Made by a program: the position numbers and the translations under genes
Shown here: one piece after another, positions 5,323-54,267 of the stretch
How the letters are laid out: every line of letters begins with the position of its first letter
Position numbering within the stretch: the stretch's first letter is position 1
Notes under the pieces: model-generated
The model's input: only the letters and a program-made list of their open reading frames with translations
What the model was told of the DNA's origin: nothing
Databases searched by the model: none
DNA from: an uncultured candidate division WWE3 bacterium
Lineage (GTDB): Bacteria > Patescibacteriota > WWE3 > UBA101185 > UBA10185
Assembly (NCBI GenBank): GCA_903879985.1
Contig: CAIRNR010000004.1
Span: 32,762-96,761 of the forward strand
DNA length: 64,000 nucleotides
Reading direction: 5' to 3'

Positions 5323-6284
5323 TTGGCAATTGTATCATTTACTTGTTGATAGTTTTTGCACATCATTAAAGTTTGCCTAAGTTCATCGGCACCTTTAAAG
5401 TTATTTACGTACATTTTGAAAAACTTTTTTAATGTTTCGAAATATTTTGAGTCTCCGTATTTTTGGTAAAACATTTCGTTATGCTTTAAAAGTAGGTCTA
5501 TATAATTTTTTGTTGAATGTGGGGTTGTGTTTTCGTTTTTTTCAAATACCCAAGGATTGTAAAATATTCCGCGACCAATCATTATGCCGTCAACGCCATA
5601 AGTTTTATGTTTTTCTAAAACGTTTGCATAACTTTTAACATCGCCGTTTCCGATTATTACTGTTTCAGGTGCTAACGAATCGCGAAGTTTTACTGCTTTA
5701 CCTATTTCTTCCCAGTGCGCGTCAACTTTTGATAACTCCTTGGCGGTTCGTGCATGAAGTGTAAGTGCTGATATGTTTTGACTAAGTAAAAACGAAATCC
5801 ATGCTTGAGTATCCTCTGGTGTTTTATTCAAGCGTGTTTTTACACTTATTGGTAAATCTCCGCAACCGCGTCTAACAGCATCAATCAATTCGGCAGCAAC
5901 TTCAAAGTTTCCGATTAATGCCGCGCCGGATTTTTTAGCCATAACTGCGTGTGCCGGGCAAGCCATGTTTATGTCAATGCCGTCGAATCCTAGTTCTTTA
6001 ACCATTTGAGCTGACTGAAAAAAATGTTCAGGTGTTGATCCCCAAATTTGGGCGACAATCGGACGCTGGGTTTCGTTAAAAAATAATTTTCTACCTACTC
6101 TCTCTTTGTTTCCGCGAACTAATCCGTCGGCGCTGACAAATTCTGTAAACATAACATCAGGTTTTGCTGTGGTTGTTACAAGTTCTCTAAATACAACATC
6201 GGTTACGTCGTCCATGGGAGCCAGGACTGTAAAAGGTTTATTTAGTTTTATCCAAAAGTTTGATGTGTTTTGCACGGAAGACAT
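5295..6284 (-). CDS. dus: tRNA-dihydrouridine synthase (Dus family TIM-barrel flavoenzyme).
   Basis: It has the N-terminal LAPMDDVTDVVFR (compare Dus LAPMAGVTD..FR), a catalytic Cys region, and a length of 329 aa. Confidence 0.75.
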   Translation of the reverse strand: MSSVQNTSNFWIKLNKPFTVLAPMDDVTDVVFRELVTTTAKPDVMFTEFVSADGLVRGNKERVGRKLFFNETQRPIVAQIWGSTPEHFFQSAQMVKELGFDGIDINMACPAHAVMAKKSGAALIGNFEVAAELIDAVRRGCGDLPISVKTRLNKTPEDTQAWISFLLSQNISALTLHARTAKELSKVDAHWEEIGKAVKLRDSLAPETVIIGNGDVKSYANVLEKHKTYGVDGIMIGRGIFYNPWVFEKNENTTPHSTKNYIDLLLKHNEMFYQKYGDSKYFETLKKFFKMYVNNFKGADELRQTLMMCKNYQQVNDTIAKWNFPQIKK

Positions 6285-15027: not shown

Positions 15028-15627
15028 TTAATCAGGTACAAAGCCGGTTGCAGGAGTGGTGGCTTGAGATGCGGTTAATTTGCCCCACCCAGTTTTTGCA
15101 ATCGGAATCAATGCCCAGAAGACCATGACGCTGGTGAAGATCTTTCCGATGAAGCCCGGCCCGTAATATCCCAATAGTCCAGGAAGGGTTAACGGCACTG
15201 CATCGCGGTATCCATCCGGTAACCATCCCAGGGCCCATGCGATTAAGGATCCCAAAATCACCGTGCCCATATTGATATTACCGCGGAACCACCAGAAGGC
15301 GAGATCAACGCCAAGGCCTTCAATTCCGTCGGCAAGGATTACCCAAAGGCCGATCGGTGAGCCCAGCATCAACTCGACAACGCCTGACAGAAGTTTAACA
15401 ATCGTTGCAGCCCCAGGTTTCCTGATCCGCAGGATGATTAAGAAGCTGACGACGTTGAATCCAAAACTGCCAAAGAGGTCTTTCACGGCTGGGATAATTT
15501 GTGCGCCATAAATAAACTGCGCCCAACCCCACTGCCACAGACCGGCAACCACAACCATTCCCGCCATTTCGACAAAATCGCGCGTGGTAAAACCACCCCA
15601 TTTAGGTCGTGCCATTTTCGTTTCCAT
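15028..15627 (-). CDS. ECF transporter substrate-specific (S) component-like membrane protein (YkoE-like position).
   Basis: The ORF track start is 15735. A GGAGCAAGG RBS lies 7 nt before the ATG at 15627 (METKMARPKW). The protein has 5-6 TM helices and is Trp/Gly-rich. Gene order S then AA' then T matches ykoEDC-type ECF loci. It is GC-elevated. Confidence 0.45.
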   Translation of the reverse strand: METKMARPKWGGFTTRDFVEMAGMVVVAGLWQWGWAQFIYGAQIIPAVKDLFGSFGFNVVSFLIILRIRKPGAATIVKLLSGVVELMLGSPIGLWVILADGIEGLGVDLAFWWFRGNINMGTVILGSLIAWALGWLPDGYRDAVPLTLPGLLGYYGPGFIGKIFTSVMVFWALIPIAKTGWGKLTASQATTPATGFVPD

Positions 15628-15783
15628 AACCTTGCTCCTTTTTTCAAACGTATTGATATTTCTGATGTGATTTTTGACGAGTGAAAACTCGGTGTCTTCT
15701 AAATGACTTTCTTCTTCTGCGCGCCAATGTAACACACTTTATTTTGATATACAAGCATATAGTACTTAGACTATACTTTTAAA

Positions 15784-20928: not shown

Positions 20929-23900
20929 TTACCACCACAACAAAACTCGCCACATTTCATTACCTGTATGTCTCATAACGTAAAGGTATCTTAAATGATC
21001 CTTTGGATAAGATGATGCGGTAGGATCAGCGTATTCTATAATTTCCATTCTATTACCAATAACTGCTGTACCCATACCATAAGGAACCGTTGCGGAAGGC
21101 ATTACAAGGTTAGTAACAATATCGTAATAGTTAATTCTACCAGTAGCCTCTTTTGTAAAATAAATTCTGTCGACGCCGTCATAACTGTACATAGAACCTG
21201 TTGTTAATGTTTCCATATTTGGGAACTGAGTGATCGTTTCCCAAACTCCATATGGAATATCGTATCTGTTAAGTTCGGTTGCCGCACCACCTCTAAAAGA
21301 ATACATAAATCTTGCCTTCATATTAGAAGTGCTTGGATCATATAATCTATCTAAATGTAAGCCAGTACCACGAGGTGTTATTGGATAAATAGCGTAAACA
21401 TCTGCGCCTGCTGTGGCACCAATGGTAAAACCAAAAGAAGTACCAAAAGCGGACATTTGTGTCTGACTGTTCTGTCCTGCGGCTACGACAGCTTGCTCAG
21501 CTGGGTTTGCGGTTCCTGGTACCTGACCTGCAAGCATTCGTGCTCTGTGACCTGCAAAGTATGCGTATGGCCAGTTCTGTGTGTAATCAATAATTGCTGT
21601 TGTGGAACCTCCTGTAGCAACTCCGTAACAATCTAATATTTCGTAAACTGTTGTTGCATCTGTCGTGGCGCTTAATGCTGTAGCTAATGTAAGCGTTGTT
21701 GCGGTGTTAGACAAAATCGCTGCCTGACTTCCCGCCCCTGCCCCAGCGACAATTTGTACAAGTCTTGCGTCGGTTCCTTTTATGGTTCTTATAACGGAAC
21801 CTGATTCTGTAGTTAAACCAGACGCGACTGTTAAAGTACCTGCCGCGGAGGTTACAACTTGGAACCAGCTATTGTTACCACTTTGCGAAAAGCCACTTAA
21901 TTTAATCCACATACCTACTGTGAATACTGCTAAACGGCTTGAAGAGTCTGTAATAGTTGTTGAGTTTGATACCTGAATTGTTGCATCACTAGCTGACACT
22001 ATAGTTTGTAATGTTTGGTTAAACCAGTTTACCGGCCAGTTTTTTGTTGCGTCGATAATTGTTTTAGCATCGCCGGCTGTTGATGTACAAACACCCCAAG
22101 TTCCTTGATTTGGTGTTCCTGAAGTGGCTCCTGGTGGAAAATACGAAGTTTTAGGCAAGGTTGAGTCAACTCCAAAGGGTTTCATATCTTGAATCATATA
22201 GCGTGTTGTACCATCAACTGGAGAGGCGCCTAAAACTAGAGTGCCCATTGTAAATGTTGTGGAGGTGTTTGCCGAAATTCTTCGTACATAGCCACCTGCA
22301 CCAATTTGTATGGATACAAGTTTGCCTACAAGTTCACTTGGTGCCCAATTTTTTGTAGCATCAACTATGATTAATGTAGTTTGTGCTTGGGTTACGGTTG
22401 CTGTACCTGTGGCTGTTGCTCCAACTGAAAGTCTAAAAATTAATGCTGTATCGTAACCGACAACTGGCCAAGCGCCGTTAATAGCTGCCGGTGCAAGAGC
22501 GCCCGCAACGGTTACAGAGTCACCAATTAAAAAGTTTGTAGAAAGAATAGTTGTAACCGCGGCAACGTTTGTAGTTGCGCCTGATGCCCACGAAACGGTA
22601 CATCCCGTGCCTCCTGCTGGTAAAACTGTTGTAACAATTGTTGATCCGGTAGTGTTATACGCGGTTCCCGCGTTTTCTAAAGCTATACTTGTTACAGCAC
22701 CAACTGAATCAACTCCTGTAACTCTATACTTTGCGGTAGTACCACCACCTCCGTTAACCGTCAAAATATTTCCAATAAAATAACCACTGCCTCCTGCGGC
22801 AATTGTAACCGGTTGTGTGCCTCCTGTATTACCTACTAATCCTCCGGCGGAAACTACAACACCTCCTGCAGCCACACCGTGTGCTCTGTCTCCAGTTTGA
22901 CCTGGTGCTGATAAAGAAATAGCTCTACAAATACCCCAATCTAATTGTGTTCCCGTTGTCCAATGATCTGCATCGATTCCGTATTGTTGCATGGCTGAAT
23001 GTGTAGCATACGTAGACCATATCTTGTCGGTGTCTGGCCATACCTCGTAGCCATCTCCATTCGCGGGATTAGAAAGCCAACTTTTTCCTATCGTAAAAGA
23101 TGTGGCATCGTTAGCTATGATTGTTCGATATTGGCCAATACTCGCTGCGGTGGTTGATGCGGTTATGCGTAATTGCATTCCTGCATATTGATTAATAACC
23201 ATATTAGCACCGGAGTTTACTAATCTTCTGGACGTTCCACTTGTTGCTGTAACGCCTGTTATTAATGCTGATGGACCGTCGTGTACTATTTCTGTAGCCA
23301 AATCAGTAGCTGCAGCATTTAAAAAGTTATACTGCACCGATTTAACGTGCCAGTAATCTGAAATTACATCATAATAGGAAAGTGAAAGCCATGGAGCTGC
23401 TGCAGAATTTAACAACCAAATTCCGCCACCTTTAACAACGAATCTTGATGTGGCATCAGGTGTAACGTCCCAAGCAACGGAGACTGTAATCATGGAAGCT
23501 TCAATATAGTAGTCACTACCTGCACCGGGTGCGGTCCATGGAGGATTTCCCCAAGGATCAATGGCTAAATACGCTGGGTCTGCTACGGTAAGAACGGTTG
23601 AAGTATTATATAAAATACGTCTAACCTGAGATTGACCAGTGCCTAACACAACTCTAACCTGATAATCCCGCCATTGATTTGGTTTCCATAGTCTATAAAT
23701 AGGTGGATTAACTGTTGCATCTGTTAACGATGTCGTCGCGCCCGCAGTTGCTACCCCGTAGTCATACGTTATAGGTTCACCAACATCTAATATTGTTCTT
23801 TCCTGACCTGCACCTGTTCCTGATAAGATTTTTATTTTTAATCCCTTTAAGGCTTTTCCATTTAAGGCAGCTGCATAAAAAGTTGTAGTAGTTGGTGCAG

Positions 23901-24177
23901 GTGAAGCTAAAACTCTTGAGTAATATCCGACGTCGTTGGAATAGCGTAACGGTGCATCTACAGCCGCGGTTACAGGTCCGTTAGCTAATTGGTGCCATGT
24001 GTCGTTGATTGTGTCATAACGATACATCGTAGCTGCAGTATAGTAATACATGTATCTGGGTGCTCCAGGAGGAGAACATGTAGCACAGATGTTTGTATTG
24101 GTAGCGACTGGTGCTAATTTACACCATTCCCATACCGGTTGATCAACTAAATTTTTTAAATTTAATGTAATAGCCAT
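20929..24177 (-). CDS. Giant (1082 aa) Thr/Gly/Ala/Val-rich fibrous protein, possibly a fibre or adhesin; no N-terminal signal peptide.
   Basis: It is one uninterrupted ORF with internal repeats (IIDATKNWP, IVDATKNWAP, IIDYTQNWPY) and beta-rich composition. It is co-oriented with two upstream small genes. Confidence 0.5.
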   Translation of the reverse strand: MAITLNLKNLVDQPVWEWCKLAPVATNTNICATCSPPGAPRYMYYYTAATMYRYDTINDTWHQLANGPVTAAVDAPLRYSNDVGYYSRVLASPAPTTTTFYAAALNGKALKGLKIKILSGTGAGQERTILDVGEPITYDYGVATAGATTSLTDATVNPPIYRLWKPNQWRDYQVRVVLGTGQSQVRRILYNTSTVLTVADPAYLAIDPWGNPPWTAPGAGSDYYIEASMITVSVAWDVTPDATSRFVVKGGGIWLLNSAAAPWLSLSYYDVISDYWHVKSVQYNFLNAAATDLATEIVHDGPSALITGVTATSGTSRRLVNSGANMVINQYAGMQLRITASTTAASIGQYRTIIANDATSFTIGKSWLSNPANGDGYEVWPDTDKIWSTYATHSAMQQYGIDADHWTTGTQLDWGICRAISLSAPGQTGDRAHGVAAGGVVVSAGGLVGNTGGTQPVTIAAGGSGYFIGNILTVNGGGGTTAKYRVTGVDSVGAVTSIALENAGTAYNTTGSTIVTTVLPAGGTGCTVSWASGATTNVAAVTTILSTNFLIGDSVTVAGALAPAAINGAWPVVGYDTALIFRLSVGATATGTATVTQAQTTLIIVDATKNWAPSELVGKLVSIQIGAGGYVRRISANTSTTFTMGTLVLGASPVDGTTRYMIQDMKPFGVDSTLPKTSYFPPGATSGTPNQGTWGVCTSTAGDAKTIIDATKNWPVNWFNQTLQTIVSASDATIQVSNSTTITDSSSRLAVFTVGMWIKLSGFSQSGNNSWFQVVTSAAGTLTVASGLTTESGSVIRTIKGTDARLVQIVAGAGAGSQAAILSNTATTLTLATALSATTDATTVYEILDCYGVATGGSTTAIIDYTQNWPYAYFAGHRARMLAGQVPGTANPAEQAVVAAGQNSQTQMSAFGTSFGFTIGATAGADVYAIYPITPRGTGLHLDRLYDPSTSNMKARFMYSFRGGAATELNRYDIPYGVWETITQFPNMETLTTGSMYSYDGVDRIYFTKEATGRINYYDIVTNLVMPSATVPYGMGTAVIGNRMEIIEYADPTASSYPKDHLRYLYVMRHTGNEMWRVLLWW

Positions 24178-25868: not shown

Positions 25869-28800
25869 ATGAAGAATGTGCGCATGCCCAAAAGTTTAAA
25901 AGTTCTTATTTTTGGAGTACTTTTTAGTATTCTCTATGTTGGGGCTGCCTCTAAAGTTATGGCAGCTCCTGCCGAATACCAACGCTGTGGACGCGGTGGT
26001 AGTTGTGAAATCGGTGAATTCTTATACGACGATTCATATTCGCCGATTACAACTGCGGGTATTTGTATTCTTACAAGTCGTACTTCATCTGGAAGCGTTT
26101 ATGCCGATCCTCCTTCAATAATGACTTCTTCCAGTGCGGGAGATGGTTGGTATTCATCTAACTGGACAGTTGGCGGTGCTCAAACCGAAGGACTTTATCC
26201 CACAACAGTTTGTTGTACTCCTGTTGGAGAAAATAAAATTTGTATCGATAAATCTTTTGTTATTGGTACAACTTTATTATCTGGCTCGGAAGTAGCCAAT
26301 GCCGTTTGGGATTCACAAACCAGCGATCACACAGGCGCAGGAACTTTTGGAAATGTATTAGGAAATATTTTATATAACATTTGGAATTACGGTACGCGCT
26401 CATTAACTTCTGCAACATTAGCCCTAGGAGAACAATTAGCTGTTAAATCTGAAGTAAATTCATCCATTACTGCATCACAAACAGCTGTCACAAGTGCTGT
26501 TAGTGGTTCACAGGGGTTGGTTATAGCAAATCAGAACTCAAATACAGGAACAGTTACCAGCGCCGTCACAGGTTCACAAGGTTTAGTGATCGCTAACCAA
26601 AATTCCAATACGGCTAGCGTAAACAGCGCGGTTGCAGGCTCTCAAGGATTGATTATTGCAAATCAAAATTCCAATACCGGAACAGTTACAAGTGCTGTTA
26701 GTGGTTCACAAGGATTAATTATTGCAAATCAAAATTCCAATACGGATAGTGTCAACAGTGCAGTTACAGGATCACAAGGTTTGGTAATTGCCAACCAAAC
26801 TGCCAATACATCTACAATTACCGGTTGGATAACTAGTACGCTCGCCGCACTACAAGCCGCAATACTTGGACAACAATCAAGCGATACCTCGTCATTAGCA
26901 GGCACTGTAACAAGTGCTATGTCTGGTTCACAAAACGCAATTATTGCCAATCAAAATTCAAATACAGATACCGTTACAAGTGCTGTTACTGGGTCTCAAG
27001 GTTTGGTAATCGCAAATCAAACAGCTAACACAAATACAATCACTGGTTGGATAACAAGTACGCTTGCATCATTACAAGCCGCAATACTTGGACAACAGTC
27101 ATCAGATACTTCTACATTGGCAGGAACCGTTACCAGCGCCGTCACAGGTTCACAAGGTTTAGTTATAGCAAATCAAAATTCAAATACTGGTACAGTTACA
27201 AGTTCAGTTTCCGTTGCACAAAACGCAATTATCGGAAACCAAAATTCAGCAACAGGAGTAATAACAGGCGCAGTTTCAAGTTCAGTATCGGCAGCTCAAG
27301 GTGCAATATTAGGTCAACAAACATCTGACACATCAACAATAACCGGTGCAATAACGGCAGGAACAGGCACAGTTACCAGCGCTGTTAGTGGTTCACAGGG
27401 CTTAATAATTGCCAGCCAAAGTGCTGCAACGGGCACAATAACAGGTGCAGTTTCAAGTTCTGTTTCTGGAGCACAAGCTGCAATTTTAGGTCAACAAACA
27501 TCTGATACTTCAACGCTTTTAGCACAAATGCTCGCAGACAAAACCTACTTGGGAAATGCAGTTACTTCTTCTCAATCAGCAATTATGGGACCCTCTGCTA
27601 AAAATCTAACGCAAATTGCAACAGGTGTTTCCGGATTACAATCAACAGCAGATTCTATTTCCACAAAAGTAGATTCATTGCAAACATCTATAGGTACGGT
27701 GGATACGAATGTTGACTCACTAATAACCAATTGGAATAATCTAGATTTGTCTCAGGTTTCTAGTGCCATGAGCGCAATAAGTACAAGCTTAGGTACTATT
27801 TCAGACGGATGTGCAAGTACAACTACTGTTTTTGGTGATATTCGCTGTTTAAAGGATAAATGGGGAGTTCAAGATGCCTCATCTTTGTATAATGCCGCAA
27901 ATAATGCTTATACAACATCTATAGCACTTCAGGGTGAATTGGATTATAACCAAAAATCGACAACAGCTTATAAAGATTTACAAAATTTAAAAACTTATGT
28001 GTTAGCTCTTCAAACTTCCTTAGGTACCGAAGCTGACGCGGCAACAGTGCCTACTATTTTTGGGCGTATTAAAAAATCTCAAGATACATTGGCAAATTTA
28101 AATACATCGGGAACCGGACTTGACGATTTACTAAGCAAGTGGGGTTCTTATGATGCCGCCGATATATATAACAAGGTTAAAAATCTTTCTGATGATATAG
28201 AAAAGGTTAATACAGTTCCCGACGTAGATTCGATTTTAAAATTATCTAAACAAAACTCTTCAGATATGAAAGAGTTGAAAAATACAACTTACGCATTAAA
28301 GGCTGTTGTAGATGTTAACAGAGTTTTACTTGATAAATTTTCAAATTCTCCAATTGTAAAAACATGGCTTGAAGATGGCTCGGTAATTTTCAAAACATTA
28401 ATTACTAACCCATCAACTATTTCTAAACAAACAGTTCCTCTAAAATTTTATCTACCTAAAGAAACCAGAAAAGAAGATTTAATTAAAGTAGATACAGGTT
28501 TGAATGTTGAATTTGATTCAAAAGAAGATGCATTTTTTGTTAGTGGTTTATTCCCATTAAATCCTGGTGAAACAAAAATAGTAGCTGTTGAGGTTAAGGA
28601 TGTTTGGAAAATAAATACAACTGAATTGGATTCATTAAGAATGCAAGCCGAAGATTTATCTGTTCCTCTAAAAGATAGTTCGTTTTTTGCGCAAGGTGTA
28701 ACTCTTAAGTCGGATATCGTCGTACGACTTGACGATATTAAACGTTTGCAAAGCGAGGCTTATACACCAGAAGATCGTATCAAAACTTTCAGAGACAATA

Positions 28801-29819
28801 TGACGCAATTAAGTTCTATTAAGCTTGAAATGGGAGAACTTAAATCATTAGTCGCGCAATCAGCGTCATCTAAGAATTTATTAGGATTTGTTGGCGGCGC
28901 ACAAGTTTCATCTATTTGGGGAATCGTGTTTGTATTACTCGCTGCCTTTGGATTTATTTTGATTTATACCAAGTTCTTGCTGGGTGCATTTAAACCTAAA
29001 GGAAAAGTTAAAAATGAGGTTCAGGAAACAACAACCAGCATTGGAATGCCCGATTTACCAGAACAAAAGAAAGTACTTCCAAATATTGTGTTGCCAGCTT
29101 TACCAAAGCCAACATTTGCTAAACTATCGATGAATGTCCATGTACTAAAATTGGTATTTATATCTGTAGCTTCATTTGCTGTAATGGGTGCAGGCGTATG
29201 GTTTATGTTAACAAGATTAACGCCAAGTAAACCTGTGTCTGTTCCACAAGAAATTAAAAAGGAAATAACACCTACGGTAGCTGAAGAACCAACTAATGTT
29301 GATTCTGCACCAAACGAAACTCAGATAACCACAGAAAAATCTGTATTGGGAGCTCAAAGTACAAATGTAGTAATCACAATTCCTTCATATTCCGACGGCG
29401 TAAATGTACGACAACAACCTGATATTACTTCTCCAGTATTAATTAGATATAACAAGGATACAGAGGTAATAAAATATTCTGAATCTGGAACTTGGACAGA
29501 AGTAGGAATAGATTTAACAGTTGCTGGTGTTAACTACACCCGTGGTTGGGTAAGCACTGGTTTAATTACAGTTCCTTCTTCCGTAAAGGTTGTTGCACCG
29601 GCAGATACCGATGGAGTAAATGTTAGAGCAAAGCCCGGATTAAGCTCTGACGTTATTGGTATCACTCCAGTTGAGTTTAATACAGTTAAATATGGTGAAT
29701 CCGCGGACGCCGATTGGGTTGAGATAGAAGTTGATATGAAAAAAGATGATACTAAATACACAAGAGGCTGGGTTAATAAGCAGTTTGTACAAAAAGCTGA
29801 ATCTACTCCATCATTATAA
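25869..29819 (+). CDS. Giant (1316 aa) secreted repeat protein with two late TM segments and tandem C-terminal SH3b domains.
   Basis: It has a Sec signal peptide, a Cys-rich head, about fifteen 22-aa repeats (VTSAVTGSQGLVIANQNSNTGT), a long helical or coiled region, two hydrophobic segments (around 28.90-28.97 kb and 29.13-29.21 kb), then two SH3_3-like modules (DGVNVR...YTRGWV, twice). Confidence 0.6.
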   Translation: MKNVRMPKSLKVLIFGVLFSILYVGAASKVMAAPAEYQRCGRGGSCEIGEFLYDDSYSPITTAGICILTSRTSSGSVYADPPSIMTSSSAGDGWYSSNWTVGGAQTEGLYPTTVCCTPVGENKICIDKSFVIGTTLLSGSEVANAVWDSQTSDHTGAGTFGNVLGNILYNIWNYGTRSLTSATLALGEQLAVKSEVNSSITASQTAVTSAVSGSQGLVIANQNSNTGTVTSAVTGSQGLVIANQNSNTASVNSAVAGSQGLIIANQNSNTGTVTSAVSGSQGLIIANQNSNTDSVNSAVTGSQGLVIANQTANTSTITGWITSTLAALQAAILGQQSSDTSSLAGTVTSAMSGSQNAIIANQNSNTDTVTSAVTGSQGLVIANQTANTNTITGWITSTLASLQAAILGQQSSDTSTLAGTVTSAVTGSQGLVIANQNSNTGTVTSSVSVAQNAIIGNQNSATGVITGAVSSSVSAAQGAILGQQTSDTSTITGAITAGTGTVTSAVSGSQGLIIASQSAATGTITGAVSSSVSGAQAAILGQQTSDTSTLLAQMLADKTYLGNAVTSSQSAIMGPSAKNLTQIATGVSGLQSTADSISTKVDSLQTSIGTVDTNVDSLITNWNNLDLSQVSSAMSAISTSLGTISDGCASTTTVFGDIRCLKDKWGVQDASSLYNAANNAYTTSIALQGELDYNQKSTTAYKDLQNLKTYVLALQTSLGTEADAATVPTIFGRIKKSQDTLANLNTSGTGLDDLLSKWGSYDAADIYNKVKNLSDDIEKVNTVPDVDSILKLSKQNSSDMKELKNTTYALKAVVDVNRVLLDKFSNSPIVKTWLEDGSVIFKTLITNPSTISKQTVPLKFYLPKETRKEDLIKVDTGLNVEFDSKEDAFFVSGLFPLNPGETKIVAVEVKDVWKINTTELDSLRMQAEDLSVPLKDSSFFAQGVTLKSDIVVRLDDIKRLQSEAYTPEDRIKTFRDNMTQLSSIKLEMGELKSLVAQSASSKNLLGFVGGAQVSSIWGIVFVLLAAFGFILIYTKFLLGAFKPKGKVKNEVQETTTSIGMPDLPEQKKVLPNIVLPALPKPTFAKLSMNVHVLKLVFISVASFAVMGAGVWFMLTRLTPSKPVSVPQEIKKEITPTVAEEPTNVDSAPNETQITTEKSVLGAQSTNVVITIPSYSDGVNVRQQPDITSPVLIRYNKDTEVIKYSESGTWTEVGIDLTVAGVNYTRGWVSTGLITVPSSVKVVAPADTDGVNVRAKPGLSSDVIGITPVEFNTVKYGESADADWVEIEVDMKKDDTKYTRGWVNKQFVQKAESTPSL
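26470..27510 (+). repeat. In-frame tandem repeat array with a 66-nt (22-aa) period, about 15 units with degenerate spacers.
   Basis: Direct reading: VTSAV[ST]GSQGL[VI]IANQNSNT[GD][TS] repeats, interspersed with ITGWITSTLAALQAAILGQQSSDTS units. Confidence 0.7.
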
Positions 29820-34350: not shown

Positions 34351-34743
34351 CTACCTCTTATTCATAAATGTTATGGTCAATTGAAGTGTTGTAGCAAACG
34401 AAACCCACAACAAATAAAAAATGTTTAAATATACCACCCATGGTTTGTATGGCATGATTGCAATAAACGCCCAAAGTATTGTAAATAAAACTAAAATAAT
34501 ATCTGCTGCTGCGAGTTTATTGTTTTTTAAACCAAATTGAATGTATGTGAAAGAAAAGTTAAATATCAAATTTAAGGCAAAGGGTAACGTGATTAGCCAA
34601 GATATTTTTCCCAAAAATGTATCGTAAAATACGCTTCCAAAGCTTACTGCAATGATTATATAAAGGACAGTCCAAACAGGACCAAAAATCCAAGCTGGAG
34701 GTGACCACTTTGGTTTTTTAAGTTTTTGATAATACTTTTGCAC
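34351..34743 (-). CDS. TspO/MBR-like tryptophan-rich membrane protein (short form).
   Basis: The N-terminus KPKWSPPAWIFGPVWTVLYIIIAVSFG matches the TspO start pattern (L-x-K-P-x-W-x-P-P...P-V-W-x-x-L-Y). There are 4 TM helices. Confidence 0.45.
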   Translation of the reverse strand: MQKYYQKLKKPKWSPPAWIFGPVWTVLYIIIAVSFGSVFYDTFLGKISWLITLPFALNLIFNFSFTYIQFGLKNNKLAAADIILVLFTILWAFIAIMPYKPWVVYLNIFYLLWVSFATTLQLTITFMNKR

Positions 34744-35830: not shown

Positions 35831-36229
35831 TCAGCGCAGCAAGAAAAATACGGCTGTAAGGATAACGATTAGAACGATCAGCAGTTTCCAGATATTTCGC
35901 TGATCAAGAAACGGGTCGGTAATTTTGTCGGGAAGTCCGATGAAAATTCCAAGGCCCAGTCCAGCACCCGCCATACATGCAAAAATTTCTGCAAGGAATG
36001 TCGATAGGTCATAGGTGCGGTACATCGGTGTAACTGTACCGGAGCAGAACAGTAAGCACGCCAGGAGACACAATGCCCCAAATGCGGCAATTCCCCAACC
36101 GGCTGTGTCTGCTTTGGTTATACGTTTTTGTACTGAATTTGGCATCATCAAAAACAGCGAGATAATGCCCACTGCGAAGATTGTTATTGCAACTCCGCTG
36201 AAAATATATTTTAACGTAGTTCCATCCAT
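35831..36229 (-). CDS. Small membrane protein (4 TM), hypothetical.
   Basis: Hydrophobic ORF. It starts a GC-elevated patch. Confidence 0.3.
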   Translation of the reverse strand: MDGTTLKYIFSGVAITIFAVGIISLFLMMPNSVQKRITKADTAGWGIAAFGALCLLACLLFCSGTVTPMYRTYDLSTFLAEIFACMAGAGLGLGIFIGLPDKITDPFLDQRNIWKLLIVLIVILTAVFFLLR

Positions 36230-36253
36230 GATATTTTTTCTCTCTCTTTCGTT

Positions 36254-37222
36254 TTACTTCTTTTTGGGTTCTGCTGTTGCATCACATTCGCCTGGCATCA
36301 GCGAAGTGCAACCTTGCTGCAGGTTTTGAAGGGCGGCCAGCGAAGGTGTGGTAATCATTTTACTGTAACCTTCAGCAGCCGATTGATACAGTGTGCAAAT
36401 TCCTGCCACTGAATCCAAAGATACGCCATACATATAGGCATATTTTCCGGCGGGTAACATCGCGATGCCTTCGGGAGTGCCATCGTGAATTGCCTGGTAT
36501 TGCGAGCAAACTTTCATATCGCGGGTTTCAGCCTGCAGCGCTTTTGTGGGAAATCCCATAAACTGCGCCGGCAGAACCTGGTCAGCATTTTGTGATCCAA
36601 CAAATGTGGCAAAAGCTTTGTCGCCACTTTGGATCAGTTTCTGAATATCGGCGCCGTACTTATTATAAAAATCAATAATCACGGCTGTCTTCAGATCGCT
36701 AAGTTCCAGGTTTGAGATTTGACCATCAATCCTGAAAATTTCTCCTTTGATGTTCATGGCCTGAGCACGGTTTGATCGCATGTATACGGCGATATTTGTC
36801 GCGTGCTTTTGGCATTCCGTCACATCCCCAGGATAGGTTTGATTAACATGCAGCATATTCAATAGCGCCGGCGTTTCCTGGCCCATGCCCTTATCGCCAA
36901 ATGCGCCCGTTAAAGCTGCAATAAAGAATTCCTGCGAGTTGCTGTAGCAAAGTTTCATTACAGCCAGCTCGTCTTTGGTCTCAGACTGTGCATTTTCCAT
37001 TTGGGTTGTGTACAGTTTGAGTTGCTTCGTTTTCTCCACATCAAGGGCGACATGGGCGCTGTAAACTTTCGCAGCCTCCATGTACGCGATTTTCATTTCC
37101 TGCGTAAACTGTGTGGCTAACGGCGCAGGAGACGGTGCGGGAGCACAGGCGGATACCAGCATCATCAAAGTGATGAGCGTTACAAAGAGCAAATACGGAA
37201 TTTTCTTAAAATTGAGTTTCAT
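36254..37222 (-). CDS. Lipoprotein, function unknown (GC-elevated).
   Basis: The signal peptide has the lipobox LVSAC. The product is 322 aa with several Cys. Confidence 0.4.
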   Translation of the reverse strand: MKLNFKKIPYLLFVTLITLMMLVSACAPAPSPAPLATQFTQEMKIAYMEAAKVYSAHVALDVEKTKQLKLYTTQMENAQSETKDELAVMKLCYSNSQEFFIAALTGAFGDKGMGQETPALLNMLHVNQTYPGDVTECQKHATNIAVYMRSNRAQAMNIKGEIFRIDGQISNLELSDLKTAVIIDFYNKYGADIQKLIQSGDKAFATFVGSQNADQVLPAQFMGFPTKALQAETRDMKVCSQYQAIHDGTPEGIAMLPAGKYAYMYGVSLDSVAGICTLYQSAAEGYSKMITTPSLAALQNLQQGCTSLMPGECDATAEPKKK

Positions 37223-37248
37223 TTCTTCCTCATTTCACTGGATATTGA

Positions 37249-39039
37249 CTATTGATGAGTCCAGACAATAAGTCCGAACAAGACGCCACACACTAACTCG
37301 ATCACGAGAATAAGTGTTGGCCAGAACGTAAATCCCCCGGTAATTGCCGCTTGTTGTGAAACAGCTGCGGAAATCACTTGGTTTATTTCGTCCTGAGATA
37401 ATACAACGCGGTCGATGAGGTAATTGAAGTTATCCTCCATTGAGGGCTTCTTAGCGCCATACCTTTCCCAAAGTCCCATAGGGGTTCCTTGAGTACCGGT
37501 TAGGCTCAGTTTGCCATCGGCGGCGATGATTAAAGCGGGCTTTCCAAAAAACCCTTCCGGTGTAAACGGAATTTTCTGTAGTTCATCTGGAATACCGGAA
37601 GCCATAGCCTCTTTCAAGGTTTCGTTTCCTATGGGGAGTCCAGACATTACACGGCATCCTGCTGGTTTAATATAGCGGCCATCAGGTCCATTACTGACAA
37701 CGCACGTCGTCAGAATGGTGTTTTGCTGCATAATCGTGTACAGCGTTTTATCGCCGAACACTTTTTTCCACTTGCCGTTGTAGAGATCAGCCCGCATATT
37801 GTAGACGAGATCATCCAGCGAAACGCCCGTGGCATTCAATTCTTCCTCGGAAACAAACGCAAACGAGTTTGAAATATGCAGTACGTTGCCGTAGTACATG
37901 TTCACGTTCTGCGCGTCGGTGGTAAAACCGGCCCAGTCAACATTTTCGGCTCCAAATTTACCGAGTGGGTAAACAAAGTCAAAGTAAGTTGGCGTGTTTC
38001 CTTTGGCGGGGCTGTACAAATCGCGTGGCTCCAGCAGCATGTGTGCCGCTTGTAGCTTTGCAATGATAGCGGGATCACCAATAAATCCGGCGTTGGCGGT
38101 AGCCAGCAGTGGATTTGAATATTGGTGCCAGGACGTGGATCCTCGAGTCGTCTGTAAATTTACGTAATACATCCAGTCGACAGGAGCTGTGTAGTCGACC
38201 ATGTTGAATTTTGTCCTGAAATTTGAATACCAAAGGTCCTGATAATTTGGAGGAAGCATCCATCCAGAAAAAAACATCAACGGGTGGTTTGCATTTCCAG
38301 CATCTGGTACCAGGTTTGTTTCGGGTGTTGCGTATATGTCGGGTAGGTTAGATTGCCCTGCGTAGCGTAAAAGTGCTTTAACGTCAGGGTCGTGTTGATG
38401 GTGCCATCTCGTTTCCCAGTCATTACAAGTATCGTCGTCGTCGTCCCAACCTACGCATACCTGATACGGATCCACATCGTACACGTGCTCGAATTCCGGG
38501 CATGTGCTGTCAGCGTCTCTATTGCCAGTACAAACTTTAACCAGCATAGAGTTTTTGGTGAGATCGACACCTTGAAGAGGCAGCATTTCCGTGAACGTAT
38601 AGTTCAGCAGTTCTGCATACCTCATTGAAACTTCCGCTTTCTTTGCTGCAAGCCCTCCTTGGGATGCAGAATCCGCAGCCTTAGTCACCTCTCCCGGCGC
38701 CCGTTCCGTAATGGATTGGTACGTCGAAATTGACGAAAAGGTTGCGATAACGAAGAAAACGGCTGATATGCCCATGAATGCACCAGCTCCGGAATTTGCA
38801 GCAAAAAACGCCGCAATGATAAGCCCGGTAACAAGGATAGCCAAAAACACCAAAAATGGTGCCCAGTCGGCTGCCCCACGCCAGAGTGCCATGGATTGAT
38901 TATATGTCTGAGTCCAGACATATCTTAAGCTCGAGTTTCCTGATACCGTTGTGTCCGCCATAGTTGCCGGAGAGCACGAAACAGCAAGGAAAATGAGCAA
39001 TCCTAGGATCGCATAAATCCTTCTTTTCTTATCTTTCAT
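37249..39039 (-). CDS. Large (596 aa) secreted protein with an N-terminal signal, two TM segments near the N-terminus and a C-terminal TM anchor; function unknown (GC-elevated).
   Basis: The ORF has a Trp/Tyr/Asp-rich ectodomain and a hydrophobic C-terminal helix. It is 26 nt from the lipoprotein gene. Confidence 0.4.
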   Translation of the reverse strand: MKDKKRRIYAILGLLIFLAVSCSPATMADTTVSGNSSLRYVWTQTYNQSMALWRGAADWAPFLVFLAILVTGLIIAAFFAANSGAGAFMGISAVFFVIATFSSISTYQSITERAPGEVTKAADSASQGGLAAKKAEVSMRYAELLNYTFTEMLPLQGVDLTKNSMLVKVCTGNRDADSTCPEFEHVYDVDPYQVCVGWDDDDDTCNDWETRWHHQHDPDVKALLRYAGQSNLPDIYATPETNLVPDAGNANHPLMFFSGWMLPPNYQDLWYSNFRTKFNMVDYTAPVDWMYYVNLQTTRGSTSWHQYSNPLLATANAGFIGDPAIIAKLQAAHMLLEPRDLYSPAKGNTPTYFDFVYPLGKFGAENVDWAGFTTDAQNVNMYYGNVLHISNSFAFVSEEELNATGVSLDDLVYNMRADLYNGKWKKVFGDKTLYTIMQQNTILTTCVVSNGPDGRYIKPAGCRVMSGLPIGNETLKEAMASGIPDELQKIPFTPEGFFGKPALIIAADGKLSLTGTQGTPMGLWERYGAKKPSMEDNFNYLIDRVVLSQDEINQVISAAVSQQAAITGGFTFWPTLILVIELVCGVLFGLIVWTHQ

Positions 39040-40917: not shown

Positions 40918-41217
40918 ATGTCAAGTTTGCGTTACCAAATTAACAAGAGTAATGAGGAATTGTACACGCATCTGCTCAATTACGAGCAGTCCATGTACCA
41001 CTCACTGGCTTTTCTTTTCATCATTAGTATGGTGTTAGTTGGCCTGGTGATTTTCCTGCTTTTCAAATCAAGCTTTCAGGATGCAGTTTTTTCGATTTGC
41101 GTCACGGAAGCAATACTTTTTTTCTTTGGCTGGGGATTCATTTCGCCGCGTGTCGCCTGGAAAACCATTCCGGTTGCAAAGCCTGACGAAGATCCTGATC
41201 TCGCAACTGCAGAATAG
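40918..41217 (+). CDS. Small membrane protein (99 aa, 2 TM).
   Basis: It has a strong RBS and a terminator-like hairpin at 41225..41270. Confidence 0.4.
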   Translation: MSSLRYQINKSNEELYTHLLNYEQSMYHSLAFLFIISMVLVGLVIFLLFKSSFQDAVFSICVTEAILFFFGWGFISPRVAWKTIPVAKPDEDPDLATAE

Positions 41218-41346
41218 CTAGCTTAACCCGACCTTACTGTCAAAAGACTTAAGGCCGGGTTATTTTTTTGATGTAACTTAGTGTGTTTAAGCAAAAAAAT
41301 AGCCTGATTTGATTTTTGGTCATATCAGGCTTATTTGTAACATTAA

Positions 41347-42660
41347 CTATTTATTCTTTTTTCCTTTATCCTCCTTATCTCCTTTTTTATCACCGCCGCC
41401 GTTGTTTTGACCTGTATTTTGGTCGTGATTCTGTTGGCCTGCGGGTTTGTCGGGTTGATGATTTTCAGCAGGTTTCACAGATGTGTCATTTTTGGGTTTA
41501 TCTGTGTCCTGATGATCACCGCCGGATGGTTTTTGGTCGGAATTATTCCCGGGTTTATCGTTGTTTCCGGGTTTCCCTTTGTCGTCACCACCTGGCTTGC
41601 TACCGTTATCGTTGGGTTTACCATCGTTGCCGGGTTTTCCCTTGTCGTCGCCTGGATTCTTGTGATCGTCATTGCCAGGTTTATCCTTATCCCCATCGCA
41701 TGGTTTTGTGGGTTCTACATGCTTTGTGGGTTCGGGAGATTTGGTCGGCTTTGGCTGCTCGGTCGGCTCGTGAGTTTTGGTTGGCGCTGGTGACTTAGTC
41801 GGACAAGGATCTGTCGGCTTTGGCTGCTCGGTCGGCTCGTGAGTTTTGGTTGGCGCTGGTGACTTAGTCGGACAAGGATCTGTCGGCTTTGGGGGCTTGG
41901 TCGGCTCGTGAGTTTTGGTTGGCGCCGGTGACTTAGTCGGGCAAGGATCTGTCGGCTTTGGAGTCCTAGTAGGCTCGTGAGTTTTGGTTGGCGCCGGTGA
42001 CTTAGTCGGACAAGGATCTGTCGGTTTAGGAGTCCTTGTTGGTTCGTCAGTTTTGGTCGGCTCGTGAGTCTTCGTGGGCTCCGGGGACTTAGTCGGCTCG
42101 TGAGTCTTCGTGGGTTCTGGTGATTTAGTCGGTACACCTGTGCCGGTTTTAGTTGGCTCCGGAGTTGGTGTATCTGTCTTTGGTGCGGTTGTGCCCGTTG
42201 GAGTGTAAGTAGGAGCAGGTGTGGGCGTATCCGTTTTCGGCGCGCTGGTGCTTGTCGGTGTGTACGTTACCACTGTTTTGGTAATGGTTCCGGTTGGCGT
42301 CGGTGTGTAAGTTGACGTAGGTGTCGGAGTCGGCGTTGGGGTTGCGGTGTTTGTTGCCGTTTCAGTCATCGTGGTTGTTACAACTGGCGTAACGGTCGTA
42401 GGTACCTGAGTTGGGCATCCACAATTGCAACAGCAGCAACAACAACAGCAGCAAGAATTGCCACCGTTCTGATTCTGCGTCCGATAGGATGCGGAAACAT
42501 TCATCTGCGCCGACGTTGGGTTATTTTGGCTCGTGGTGGTAAGTAAAGTTTTCGGCATACTTGAAGCAACGATTGTTGCACCGATTACAATTCCACCACC
42601 GATGAACACGCTCGAAAGTACAAGCGCGAAGGCCAGTACAATAGCATTAAATTTGCTCAT
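41347..42660 (-). CDS. Secreted low-complexity Thr/Pro/Lys-rich repeat protein with a poly-Cys tract.
   Basis: The likely start is the second Met (MSKFNAI...), which has an AAAGGA RBS. It has a signal peptide and the tract CCCCCCCCCNCGC, followed by a T/P-rich region, then 23-aa repeats (PTDPCPTKSPAPTKTHEPT...) and a KPGNDD/KGDK-rich tail. It is GC-elevated. Confidence 0.5.
   Translation of the reverse strand: MSKFNAIVLAFALVLSSVFIGGGIVIGATIVASSMPKTLLTTTSQNNPTSAQMNVSASYRTQNQNGGNSCCCCCCCCCNCGCPTQVPTTVTPVVTTTMTETATNTATPTPTPTPTSTYTPTPTGTITKTVVTYTPTSTSAPKTDTPTPAPTYTPTGTTAPKTDTPTPEPTKTGTGVPTKSPEPTKTHEPTKSPEPTKTHEPTKTDEPTRTPKPTDPCPTKSPAPTKTHEPTRTPKPTDPCPTKSPAPTKTHEPTKPPKPTDPCPTKSPAPTKTHEPTEQPKPTDPCPTKSPAPTKTHEPTEQPKPTKSPEPTKHVEPTKPCDGDKDKPGNDDHKNPGDDKGKPGNDGKPNDNGSKPGGDDKGKPGNNDKPGNNSDQKPSGGDHQDTDKPKNDTSVKPAENHQPDKPAGQQNHDQNTGQNNGGGDKKGDKEDKGKKNK
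41715..42140 (-). repeat. 69-nt tandem DNA repeat array (about 5-6 units) encoding 23-aa Pro/Thr/Lys repeats.
   Basis: Direct reading: GGCTGCTCGGTCGGCTCGTGAGTTTTGGTTGGCGCTGGTGACTTAGTCGGACAAGGATCTGTCGGCTTT is reiterated with few substitutions. Confidence 0.7.
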
Positions 42661-42869
42661 CTCATTTTCCTTTCTTTTGTAGTCATGGGTTTTCAAAGTT
42701 CCGAATTTGTCTTACCTGAAACGTTTAGTCCTCTTCAATAATGCCTCCTTTTTATCTCTTTATGTTTGATTATTCACGGGATATTATCATGCTATAGGGC
42801 CTTAGTCAAAAAAAAGAAAGGCACCAGAGATGGTATAAACCACGCAATGGTGCCTTTTAATAACTCTAG

Positions 42870-48248: not shown

Positions 48249-48785
48249 TCAATCTCCCAGGCCGGCGGATACAAACTGGCGGGTATTTTCTGCGCCATTT
48301 CCTGCTTGTACAAACTTGCCTTGATTAAAATCGTAGGCTGAGTTCACCGAACCGCTGGAATTTTTGAGCACAAATCTTGTTAAGTAGCCATCGGCTGTTA
48401 AGGTAATGGTACCGGTACCTTGATCATTTCCTCCATTATCCCAGTGTGTGGTTACAGTGTGCACGCCGTTTTGATTCACGACCTCGTACCAGTATTTGCC
48501 GCCGGAAGTGGTTTTGTAATCGAATCTGGTTGAACCTTCAACAAACTTAAGTGCTTTGTCCCAGATACCCTTCATATAGTACGGAAGGATCGTGAACGCC
48601 AGGTAACCATTCATCATTACGGCCACATACTTGCCGCGGGCTTTGGCCATATGGTCAATCACCCATTGGTTAAGCTGTTCCTTGGAATACTTTTTGAAGT
48701 CTTCTTTTTCACCGAGGGTTGGTTCTCTACCATACACAGACTTAAACAGGTCAGAGAAAGAAATGTAACACCACCAAGCAGACAT
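48249..48785 (-). CDS. Hypothetical 178-aa protein (GC-rich).
   Basis: The ORF is clean and Trp/Tyr-rich. Confidence 0.3.
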   Translation of the reverse strand: MSAWWCYISFSDLFKSVYGREPTLGEKEDFKKYSKEQLNQWVIDHMAKARGKYVAVMMNGYLAFTILPYYMKGIWDKALKFVEGSTRFDYKTTSGGKYWYEVVNQNGVHTVTTHWDNGGNDQGTGTITLTADGYLTRFVLKNSSGSVNSAYDFNQGKFVQAGNGAENTRQFVSAGLGD

Positions 48786-52620: not shown

Positions 52621-54267
52621 ATGCTTAGTGCAATGCCTACTGAAGAAGTATTAATACAACTAAATAACGCCTCTTTTAGATACGGTGCTGAAGAATTTCT
52701 TTTTAAAGACGTTAAGCTAACCGTTAAAAAAGGTGACCGTACAGCCATTGTTGGCATTAACGGCAGTGGTAAGAGCACGCTCTTAAAGCTCTTAACAGGA
52801 CAGCTTCCTATAGAAGAAGGCGAAATTTCAATTAACTGCAAGCCTTACTACGTTCCTCAAATAGACCTATCTGTTAACCAAGAAAACTTGACTGTGTATG
52901 AATATATCGAAAAGTATTATACCGAATGGTGGGAAATTCCAAGTGAAGTTGAACGACTATTTGGCCTAACAATTAATACTGACGCTTTAGCAAAAACTTT
53001 AAGCGGTGGCGAACTCATGAAACTAAACTTGGCAATAGCACTAAAACATAACCCGGACGTTTTAATCTTGGACGAACCAACAAACCATTTAGACGTTAAA
53101 GCCATAAAATCTCTTATCGACTTTATACAGGCTCCTGTAAATCAAAAATATACTTTTATTGTAGTTTCACACGACATATTTTTCATTAACACCGTTATAA
53201 ATAAAATTTGGGAATTGGATAAACAAACAATAACAACTTATGGCGGTAATTACGATTTTTATGTTCAGCAAAAAGAATTTCAGGTAAATGGATTAAGAAA
53301 ACAATTTGAAGTCGCTAAAAACCAGTTAGAACGCGCAAAAGAAACCGAACAAAAGGAAATTGAAAAACGTGCCAACAAAGCTAATCAAGCAAAACGTGCA
53401 TTTATAAAAGGAAGTATTGATAAAACTGAATTCAGTGAAGGTAAAAATTCGGCCGGTTCCTCTATGCACACAATTACTGCTGCTATTGAAAAGTTAAAAG
53501 AAGACGCTGCCGAAGATTTGGAATTATTTGAAACCGAAGAACGCAAATTAGCTTTTATGAATATTAAAAACACAAAAGAAAATTTGGGCAGAACAATTTT
53601 CGAGTTAAAAGATAACAAGCTTTTAGTTGACGATAAAGTTTTGTTAACCGAGGTTAATCTGAAAGTTTTATACGGAGACAGAATAGTTTTGGCTGGAGAT
53701 AATGGTACAGGAAAATCCTCACTAATAAAGGCGCTTTTACAAAAAGGCACAGGTTATGCAGGTAGTCCAAACATTAAACTTGAGGGCGAAAACTATGTGG
53801 GCGCTAATATGGCTTGGGTTTATATCGATCAAAACTACAGTTTAATAAAACCAGATTTAGATTTAATCCAAAACCTAATGACTTATAACAACACTTTTAC
53901 CGAAGATATTGCTAAGGAACAATTAGGTAAGTTTAAGTTCAGAACAAAAGCTGAGCACAATAAACTTGGTAAAAATCTTAGTGGTGGTGAAATGGTTCGA
54001 CTTGTTATGGCTATGATCACGTCAAATCCTGTTGATTTGTTAATTATGGACGAACCTACAAATAATTTAGACGTTGCTACTGTGGAAGTTTTGGTTAAAT
54101 CGTTAACTTTTTTCCGAGGTTCATTAATTATTATTTCTCATAATATCGACTTTTTGACTAAGATTAATATTCAAACTGCCTATTTGATAAAAAATAAAAA
54201 GATTAAGCCGTTAAATGTAGCTCCAAGTAATCGCGAGGAATTTTATAAGGCGTTGTTAGCCGCTTAA
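52621..54267 (+). CDS. ABC-F family ATPase (two ABC cassettes, no TMD; EttA/Uup/YheS-like).
   Basis: It has Walker A GINGSGKST and GDNGTGKSS, signatures LSGGELMKLNLA and LSGGEMVRLVMA, and a coiled linker (KETEQKEIEKRANKANQAKRA). Confidence 0.8.
   Translation: MLSAMPTEEVLIQLNNASFRYGAEEFLFKDVKLTVKKGDRTAIVGINGSGKSTLLKLLTGQLPIEEGEISINCKPYYVPQIDLSVNQENLTVYEYIEKYYTEWWEIPSEVERLFGLTINTDALAKTLSGGELMKLNLAIALKHNPDVLILDEPTNHLDVKAIKSLIDFIQAPVNQKYTFIVVSHDIFFINTVINKIWELDKQTITTYGGNYDFYVQQKEFQVNGLRKQFEVAKNQLERAKETEQKEIEKRANKANQAKRAFIKGSIDKTEFSEGKNSAGSSMHTITAAIEKLKEDAAEDLELFETEERKLAFMNIKNTKENLGRTIFELKDNKLLVDDKVLLTEVNLKVLYGDRIVLAGDNGTGKSSLIKALLQKGTGYAGSPNIKLEGENYVGANMAWVYIDQNYSLIKPDLDLIQNLMTYNNTFTEDIAKEQLGKFKFRTKAEHNKLGKNLSGGEMVRLVMAMITSNPVDLLIMDEPTNNLDVATVEVLVKSLTFFRGSLIIISHNIDFLTKINIQTAYLIKNKKIKPLNVAPSNREEFYKALLAA

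Follow-up and report, generated by a model that had tools for sequence, protein, structure and literature searches.

A nine-cysteine run in a predicted surface protein of a probable WWE3 relative

What is a run of nine consecutive cysteines doing in a bacterial protein? The question is raised by a 437-amino-acid (aa) open reading frame (ORF) on the minus strand of a 64,000-nucleotide (nt) stretch of contig CAIRNR010000004.1, hereafter called the window, in whose positions all coordinates are given. The ORF looks like a genuine gene as predicted from the sequence, and its layout, frame, repeats and orphan status can be read directly. Taken as a whole, it would encode an anchored, disordered surface stalk of variable length with a thiol cluster close to the membrane, as a monocistronic gene specific to its lineage; the chances that this reading is right stand about even.

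Nine cysteine codons in a single open frame

The coding sequence is divided as follows.

41347..42660, minus strand: coding sequence of 437 aa plus stop, called from the ATG at 42658-42660, with the TAG/TAA stop at 41347-41349
42559..42651, minus strand: aa 4-34, the sole hydrophobic segment, FNAIVLAFALVLSSVFIGGGIVIGATIVASS, a predicted transmembrane signal anchor or long signal-peptide core (Kyte-Doolittle and AlphaFold2, AF2)
42454..42558, minus strand: aa 35-69, a polar S/T/N/Q-rich spacer between the helix and the Cys cluster
42415..42453, minus strand: aa 70-82, the Cys cluster CCCCCCCCCNCGC, with nine consecutive Cys (C9) at 42427-42453 and a 15-nt direct duplication; the same in 10 contigs
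42103..42414, minus strand: aa 83-186, a Thr/Pro-rich non-repetitive region, defined by composition
42056..42132, minus strand: 36-nt (12-aa, PTKSPEPTKTHE) repeat, 2.1 copies by Tandem Repeats Finder (TRF)
41744..42061, minus strand: 69-nt tandem array, TRF period 69, 4.1-4.6 copies, 91-94% matches
41350..41661, minus strand: aa 334-437 (104 residues), a Lys/Asp/Gly/Asn/Pro-rich tail of balanced charge (20 K+R, 19 D+E)

The nine codons (TGC TGC TGT TGT TGT TGC TGC TGT TGC) occupy 42427-42453, as a preliminary description of this DNA had correctly counted, placing them close by at 42424..42462. The whole cluster comprises 11 Cys in 13 residues, with C-C and C-X-C as the only spacings. Cysteine makes up 3.7% of the protein, as against 0.82% of the other proteins of the window, and at the latter frequency a chance run of nine has a probability of about 1.7e-19 per position. 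Similarly, four successive TGY codons occur six times in the window, all of them within the (TGY)9 tract, where 0.22 occurrences would be expected from shuffles.

Is the frame correct? At the site of the tract the Cys frame is open for 454 codons, compared with 20-76 codons in the other five frames. A region of 1.7 kb is 100% identical across independent ENA-pipeline, JGI and Logan assemblies from several samples, the tract is unchanged in all 10 of the metagenome contigs that cover it (from several samples and assemblers), and an identical 437-aa gene call was made on independent metagenome contigs. Because the tract is the same in 10 independently assembled contigs and Cys is the sole open frame, an assembly frame error, against which the preliminary description had cautioned, is very unlikely and was rejected as the source of the poly-Cys run; both the ORF and its Cys frame hold up. 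The overlapping ORFs in other frames (41316-41798, plus strand; 41407-41793, plus strand; 41715-42137, minus strand) had been dismissed as artefacts, presumably with good reason: all of them lie in the T-poor/A-poor repeat region, and they are best read as products of composition.

How unusual is such a run? Cysteine is among the residues most depleted from the low-complexity regions of prokaryotic proteins, and toxicity has been reported for long Cys homopolymers (PMC6821194); across proteomes, homorepeats of Cys are rare throughout (PMC5125637). When metagenome contigs were scanned for (TGY)≥9, at least 147 runs at at least 120 loci came up. Most of the (TGY)9 runs listed fall in frames for Gln, Ser/Asn, Thr/Ala, Ala/Val or Leu, and none of the at least 147 listed runs is in a convincing Cys-frame gene; the 11 listed runs in which the Cys frame is the longest are microsatellite-like or fall in wrong-frame, high-GC DNA and not in genes. 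Together with the literature, this bears out the earlier statement that poly-Cys is very rare in bacteria, and a C9 run in a well-defined bacterial ORF does appear unusual.

The tract had also been taken for a classic slipped-strand substrate, and here the sequence points the other way. It contains a 15-nt direct repeat (42428-42442 and 42443-42457, 93% identical), so that the C9 run reads as a doubled (S/C)CCCC unit and not as a pure trinucleotide microsatellite. Because its codons are mixed (TGC and TGT) and its unit is a 15-nt duplication, it should be a poor substrate for slippage, and it is invariant in all of the contigs. Simple-sequence contingency loci consist of a pure short repeat that shifts the frame; this locus has mixed codons and an invariant tract, and the changes in its 69-nt array are in frame.

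The remaining doubt at this level is whether the poly-Cys tract is part of any protein at all. Identical DNA is annotated by some pipelines as a 340-aa product that starts at M98 (41347-42369) and by others as the 437-aa product (41347-42660), and the shorter protein would have neither the anchor nor the cysteines. The signals that bear on the choice of start and on transcription are these.

42668..42671, minus strand: AGGA Shine-Dalgarno-like motif, 7 nt 5' of the ATG at 42660, read from the sequence
42781..42809, minus strand: sigma-70-like promoter match TTGACT-17 nt-TAATAT with a TG extension, a consensus match only
42808..42857, minus strand: terminator-like hairpin and T-run, 3' of the upstream 84-aa gene (-23 kcal/mol, z = -4.0, 0/200 shuffles as stable)
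41293..41331, minus strand: intrinsic-terminator-like hairpin AGCCUGAU...AUCAGGCU followed by U7, directly past the stop codon (-13.8 kcal/mol, z = -3.4)
42712..42748, minus strand: GGAGG Shine-Dalgarno (42744-42748) and an 8-codon upstream ORF (uORF) from TTG, MKRTKRFR and stop, read from the sequence

That the poly-Cys run is found in no protein, either because translation starts at M98 or because the ORF is not expressed, is very improbable. Several pipelines do call the 340-aa product, the strongest Shine-Dalgarno of the leader serves the uORF and not the ATG at 42660, and in the repeat part frames stay open owing to the T-poor composition. Yet at the tract the five other frames are closed, an AGGA is correctly spaced from the ATG at 42660, and the flanking terminators enclose a unit of fitting size. 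We favour the 437-aa form, since M98 has no Shine-Dalgarno motif and a start there would leave a 290-nt open in-frame leader that encodes a textbook N-terminal hydrophobic helix.

The AGGA that precedes the ATG by 7 nt, the promoter-like site and the terminator-like hairpins at either side make the gene look monocistronic; the number of sigma-70-like sites in the region is not above that expected from shuffles. The upstream hairpin (42808..42857) separates the gene from its upstream neighbors. Two further observations concern the leader. The TAA of the uORF (42712-42714) shares the frame of the main ORF, and if this stop were removed, the protein would gain a 26-residue basic cytoplasmic N-terminus ahead of the helix; the uORF could be a leader peptide or the leftover of an older start. 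A 21-nt inverted repeat (81% complementary) pairs the Shine-Dalgarno and start region (42658-42678) with the 3' half of the upstream terminator (42812-42832). It may be relevant only to read-through transcripts and may be a coincidence of purine and pyrimidine runs.

A predicted surface stalk and its thiols

The N-terminus consists of MSK followed by a hydrophobic segment of about 30 residues. The Kyte-Doolittle maximum over 19 residues is 2.53 within aa 4-34, with a mean of -1.55 over the remaining protein, and a single-sequence AF2 model, of low confidence, has a helix at residues 4-31 only and a per-residue confidence (pLDDT) below 50 elsewhere. The preliminary description proposed a signal peptide leading into the poly-Cys run. 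The hydrophobic N-terminus is indeed present; at about 30 residues, with the modeled helix spanning 4-31, it resembles a signal anchor more closely than a cleaved peptide, and a 35-aa spacer intervenes before the cysteines. What follows is hydrophilic and rich in Thr and Pro (85 T and 76 P of the 437 residues, 37% together), which agrees with the exported, mucin-like, low-complexity architecture proposed earlier, and the Lys/Asp/Gly/Asn-rich tail was likewise recovered at aa 334-437. Tandem Thr/Pro-rich repeats make up a large share of the protein (four 69-nt and two 36-nt units), as is characteristic of PT-repeat and mucin-like proteins. This layout supports a fully disordered surface protein that is predicted to be N-terminally anchored or secreted.

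How might such a protein work? Residues 4-34 would insert in the membrane, serving as a signal anchor or else as a possibly cleaved signal peptide, and everything past residue 34 would be extracellular. The roughly 250 Thr/Pro-rich residues in the middle would form an extended, possibly O-glycosylated stalk, the length of which could shift in 23-aa steps by recombination or slippage between the 69-nt repeats, and the zwitterionic Lys/Asp/Gly/Asn/Pro tail would be its exposed far end. The 11-Cys cluster, with the single Cys and the single His of every 23-aa repeat, would constitute a dense thiol patch; its likeliest role in anoxic water would be the binding of soft metal ions or metal sulfides or, alternatively, the linking of neighboring chains by metal-thiolate or disulfide bridges. 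The preliminary description had suggested metal binding or a disulfide or thioester knot; a thioester has nothing in its favor. Export and topology, the role as a stalk, glycosylation, variation of copy number in the population, and metal binding, cross-linking or any other function of the thiol cluster are what we infer.

The closest analogy for the cysteines themselves is with the metallothioneins, which hold metals in thiolate clusters of C-C and C-X-C motifs, with 11 Cys in the mammalian alpha domain and nine in the beta domain. The 11 Cys in 13 residues, spaced only as C-C and C-X-C, correspond to about the thiol count of one metallothionein domain. However, metallothioneins are small, cytosolic proteins with Cys spaced around the cluster, whereas the protein described here has an uninterrupted C9, is 437 aa long, and would be membrane-anchored and probably extracytoplasmic. 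With that length, an N-terminal membrane segment and no family or PDB match, it is not a member of this group. Consecutive Cys near a membrane segment are also found in the cysteine-string protein DnaJC5 and other palmitoylated juxtamembrane clusters. Those are cytosolic, are S-acylated by DHHC enzymes and have a J domain attached, none of which is present or expected here; with no DnaJ or other Pfam domain in the protein, a cysteine-string protein was rejected.

Other surface proteins resemble the rest of the molecule. PT linkers, such as those of Cellulomonas cellulases and the PTxTPx tails of Chloroflexi membrane-anchored anti-sigma-like proteins (P0001, P0003), have a similar hexapeptide-like PTKTP/PTKSP periodicity, are disordered and are situated outside a membrane anchor, and BLASTP identities reach 47-55% within the Pro/Thr-linker region only. 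Such linkers join folded domains, whereas this protein is all linker, with Cys and His in each 23-aa unit, a basal poly-Cys cluster and no Pfam match. The tail motif KPGNDGKPNDNGSKPGGDDKGKPGNNDKPGNN is similar in composition and periodicity to region Xr of Staphylococcus aureus protein A, a wall-spanning array of KPGKEDxN octapeptides that varies in copy number; both genes contain repeats whose number is liable to change. The likeness is weak and compositional (pairwise E = 0.008 against an Xr sequence), and the present tail has no LPXTG and is distal to the anchor, not beside it. The large extracellular Cys-rich proteins encoded by Peribacteria, which belong to the Candidate Phyla Radiation (CPR), are strain-variable and have been proposed to act in attachment (PMC4736985). 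They share with this protein the CPR setting, probable in the present case, predicted export, elevated Cys and, if the differences in repeat number are real, strain-level variation, but they are about 1,650 aa long with dispersed Cys (about 7%) and some recognizable domains, while here 437 domainless residues carry the Cys in one homopolymer.

Several more candidates were rejected. A bacterial lipoprotein would have an L-[AS]-[GA]-C lipobox closing a signal peptide of about 20 residues, but the first Cys is residue 70 and is preceded by G-N-S; a typical lipobox, LVSAC, is found instead in the ORF at 36254-37222. An LPXTG sortase-anchored protein does not fit a C-terminus that ends in ...GGGDKKGDKEDKGKKNK, with no LPXTG or other sorting motif and no hydrophobic stretch in the tail. 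A precursor of a ribosomally synthesized and post-translationally modified peptide (lanthipeptide or SCIFF type) is at odds with the length of 437 aa and with neighbors that have no LanB/C/M or radical SAM domains, and a thioester adhesin with a protein that has no folded domain. The gene would belong with the loosely defined class of Pro/Thr-rich, repeat-variable bacterial surface proteins, from which a juxtamembrane poly-Cys cluster, with no precedent found, sets it apart.

A full-length protein search gave Pro/Thr low-complexity (linker) matches only. HMMER with the N-terminal 101 aa against 1.84 billion representatives gave three junk matches (wrong-frame translations of repeats), a negative that is weakened because the protein itself is absent from that library. 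Pattern and tblastn scans of JGI metagenome contigs and viral contigs found no homologue, and neither did tblastn against plasmids and phages. The PDB sequences yielded a non-significant linker match only, and there was no Pfam family at E ≤ 0.01 and no PHROG. Since the protein libraries do not contain the protein itself, these negatives fall short of absolute; within their scope they show an orphan gene that, as far as sequence comparison goes, is lineage-specific.

That the C9/C11 element is a functional extracytoplasmic module, a kind of "metallothionein on a stalk" that captures or detoxifies Fe, Zn, Cu, Hg or sulfides or bridges stalks into a lattice, must be considered doubtful. A number of points weigh against the favored reading of an anchored stalk with a thiol patch. 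Nine consecutive Cys are sterically poor for chelation of a single metal cluster. The tract looks like the product of a recent 15-nt duplication, and with no homologue in any search, there is nothing to show that selection maintains it. The 340-aa call omits both the membrane helix and the poly-Cys tract. One Lys alone precedes the helix. No disulfide-forming, metal-handling or glycosylation genes adjoin the gene (Pfam/PHROG), the adjacent 261-aa protein has no homologue at all, and the assignment of the host to the CPR is based on one neighboring protein. Finally, the perfect 138-nt duplication within the repeats can be collapsed by short-read assemblers, which bears on the variation in stalk length.

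Since the tract looks recently duplicated and no orthologues were found, a neutral by-product is a serious rival. The gene would then be a young orphan built by tandem duplication, with C9 as a neutral or mildly tolerated consequence of the doubled (S/C)CCCC unit and the Pro/Thr repeats as recent expansions. This may tentatively be entertained: besides the near-identical halves of the tract, two of the 69-nt units are identical, neither the protein nor its 261-aa neighbor has a homologue, and the codon usage is atypical for the genome (GC content at third codon positions, GC3, 0.47 against an expected 0.29). However, poor tolerance of long Cys homopolymers has been reported (PMC6821194), and all 10 contigs nevertheless keep the tract unaltered while the assembled number of the repeats near it differs. 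Moreover, the additional Cys are regularly spaced, one per 23-aa unit, and the tract occupies a defined position past the anchor.

If the anchored thiol module is real, it would be a type of bacterial surface motif without described precedent. CPR bacteria depend on contacting other cells through their surface, and for most proteins at that surface no function is known. A well-supported bacterial C9 ORF just outside a membrane anchor would be a natural test case for metal capture, redox chemistry and cross-linking at the cell surface. Unless expression and thiol chemistry are demonstrated, the weight of a gene that is confined to one lineage, with no homologues or functional context, is limited, real and rare though the feature is.

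Repeat number and base composition

Does the stalk vary in length? The array holds four full 23-aa units, PTDPCPTKSPAPTKTHEPTxxPK (aa 213-304, 41749-42024), every one of which contains a single Cys and a single His, and at the DNA level the last two 69-nt units do not differ. The period and unit are as first described; the count is four and not the 5-6 reported. Between contigs, the number of units differs as follows.

4 copies: the window, a 145-kb scaffold, a 78-kb JGI contig, and contigs L003 and L004 (contig comparison)
3 copies: contigs L138 (984-2228), L139 (760-2010) and L135 (contig end; by unit order), with one of the two identical units missing in each
1 copy: contig L134 (1955-3061), a clean 207-nt in-frame deletion

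The resulting alleles (437, 414/416 and 368 aa) are distinguished solely by entire 69-nt units, always in frame, and their flanks have no single-nucleotide polymorphisms (SNPs). Contig L139 has a 10-N scaffold gap within the tail. The copy-number heterogeneity anticipated in the preliminary description is thus seen at the assembly level, as 4, 3 or 1 copies between otherwise identical contigs, but short-read collapse could mimic it. Loss of one of two identical units is a typical product of de Bruijn assemblers, and the differences could therefore reflect either true slippage or collapse.

If the slippage is true, the gene could be a contingency-type surface protein in which rapid change of stalk length through the 69-nt repeats serves to evade phages or grazers or to tune attachment to a host, with the Cys cluster being secondary. 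Such a role seems unlikely. The 4-, 3- and 1-unit alleles do occur in otherwise SNP-free contigs from different samples, three more contigs end within the repeats, and extracellular CPR proteins are reported to be strain-variable (PMC4736985). On the other hand, a collapsed perfect 138-nt duplication would yield precisely the 3-copy form, the contigs with variant numbers are short products of short-read assembly (k141, or a scaffold with Ns), and both long contigs (145 kb and 78 kb) have four copies. Furthermore, variants that stay in frame give length variation, not on/off switching. The number of 69-nt repeats would also be a simple marker of microdiversity in an otherwise clonal lake population.

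The gene is also richer in GC than its surroundings, as had been noticed before: 51.5%, against 38.2% for the window, 32-39% for the adjacent stretches and 37.6% for the mean of the other window genes. Much of this follows from what the protein is made of. When recoded with the codon usage of the window, it would have a GC content of 45.6%, and amino-acid composition, in the form of the codons for Thr, Pro, Ala and Gly, accounts for about 58% of the amount by which the gene exceeds the other window genes (37.6%). The GC3 of 0.47 nevertheless exceeds the expected 0.29 and the window average of 0.30 +/- 0.08, and it is raised in every segment (0.41-0.61), the helix and tail included. Similarly shifted GC3 is found in 36254-39039, 15028-15735, 48249-48785 and 40918-41217, and because other window genes also have high GC3, the compositional heterogeneity is not peculiar to this gene.

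The preliminary description suggested a foreign origin, which is possible but is not favored by these figures: more than half of the excess comes from the amino acids, other genes have equally high GC3, and donor-like DNA did not turn up (plasmids and phages gave nothing by tblastn, and blastn against two Pro/Thr-linker genes gave 65-70% identity only). Recent acquisition of the gene or a fragment of it from a higher-GC donor, for example a Chloroflexi-type organism with PTxTPx linkers behind a membrane anchor, is improbable. It would account for a GC3 that is raised throughout and for the position of the gene in a segment that is not syntenic with relatives, and the proteins that match best do so through Pro/Thr linkers; they are anti-sigma-like proteins of the Anaerolineae type and P0005, a protein from the same ENA sample series (ERZ14268xx). 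However, these matches are limited to the low-complexity region, the 65-70% DNA identity is what shared composition predicts, and the window scans showed no mobile-element, phage or tRNA landmark near the gene. With no such families nearby and no plasmid or phage match, carriage as phage or mobile-element cargo was rejected.

As an observation apart, the genes with a GC3 of about 0.46-0.53 are those at 35831-39039 (minus strand), 15028-15735 and 48249-48785, compared with an average of 0.30 for the genes of the genome. Among them are a membrane protein of 596 aa and the lipoprotein with the LVSAC lipobox at 36254-37222, neither of which matched a family.

Host and neighborhood

In what organism does the gene reside? 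The nearest named relative of an ABC-F gene product encoded 10 kb away is from a candidate division WWE3 bacterium (61% identity), and further relatives reach 72-78%. The host is probably a CPR (Patescibacteria) relative of WWE3 from oxygen-stratified boreal lakes. The Finnish Lake Alinen Mustajarvi is boreal, humic and stratified. ERR4195937, one of the source runs, comes from there, and a screen of European lake metagenomes covered the lake (PMC10244341). The window is rich in secreted and membrane proteins with no family match, along with NHL and SH3_3 proteins and a lipoprotein, which tentatively agrees with a CPR-type organism.

The surroundings of the gene appear to be variable. The genes for Dus (5295-6284), TspO (34351-34743) and ABC-F (52621-54267) are 18-46 kb apart in the window, while in two relatives (L008 and L009, with 74-77% identical ABC-F) Dus, ABC-F and TspO lie within a few kb. 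The loci of the ABC-F relatives are not syntenic with the window, and the intervening window genes are largely without family match. The three genes are thus split here by lineage-specific genes, which places the poly-Cys gene in a variable segment and suggests that the Dus-ABC-F-TspO interval is a large lineage-specific or rearranged segment. Contig scans of genomes with the 261-aa neighbor and with an aldehyde dehydrogenase found no relative, the other small neighbors have no Pfam or PHROG match, and the 64-kb window contains no tRNA genes and no Rfam family at the gathering threshold.

Two other large ORFs in the window may be mentioned. One, of 1082 aa (20929-24177, minus strand), is rich in Thr, Ala and Gly, with no Pfam match and no obvious signal peptide. 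The other, of 1316 aa (25869-29819, plus strand), has a signal-like N-terminus, many repeats of about 22 aa (TSAVTGSQGLVIANQNSNTGTV; 26486-27209, with periods of 66/132/222 nt), predicted transmembrane segments near its C-terminal third and two SH3_3 domains, and by these features it would be a second large repeat-bearing surface protein.

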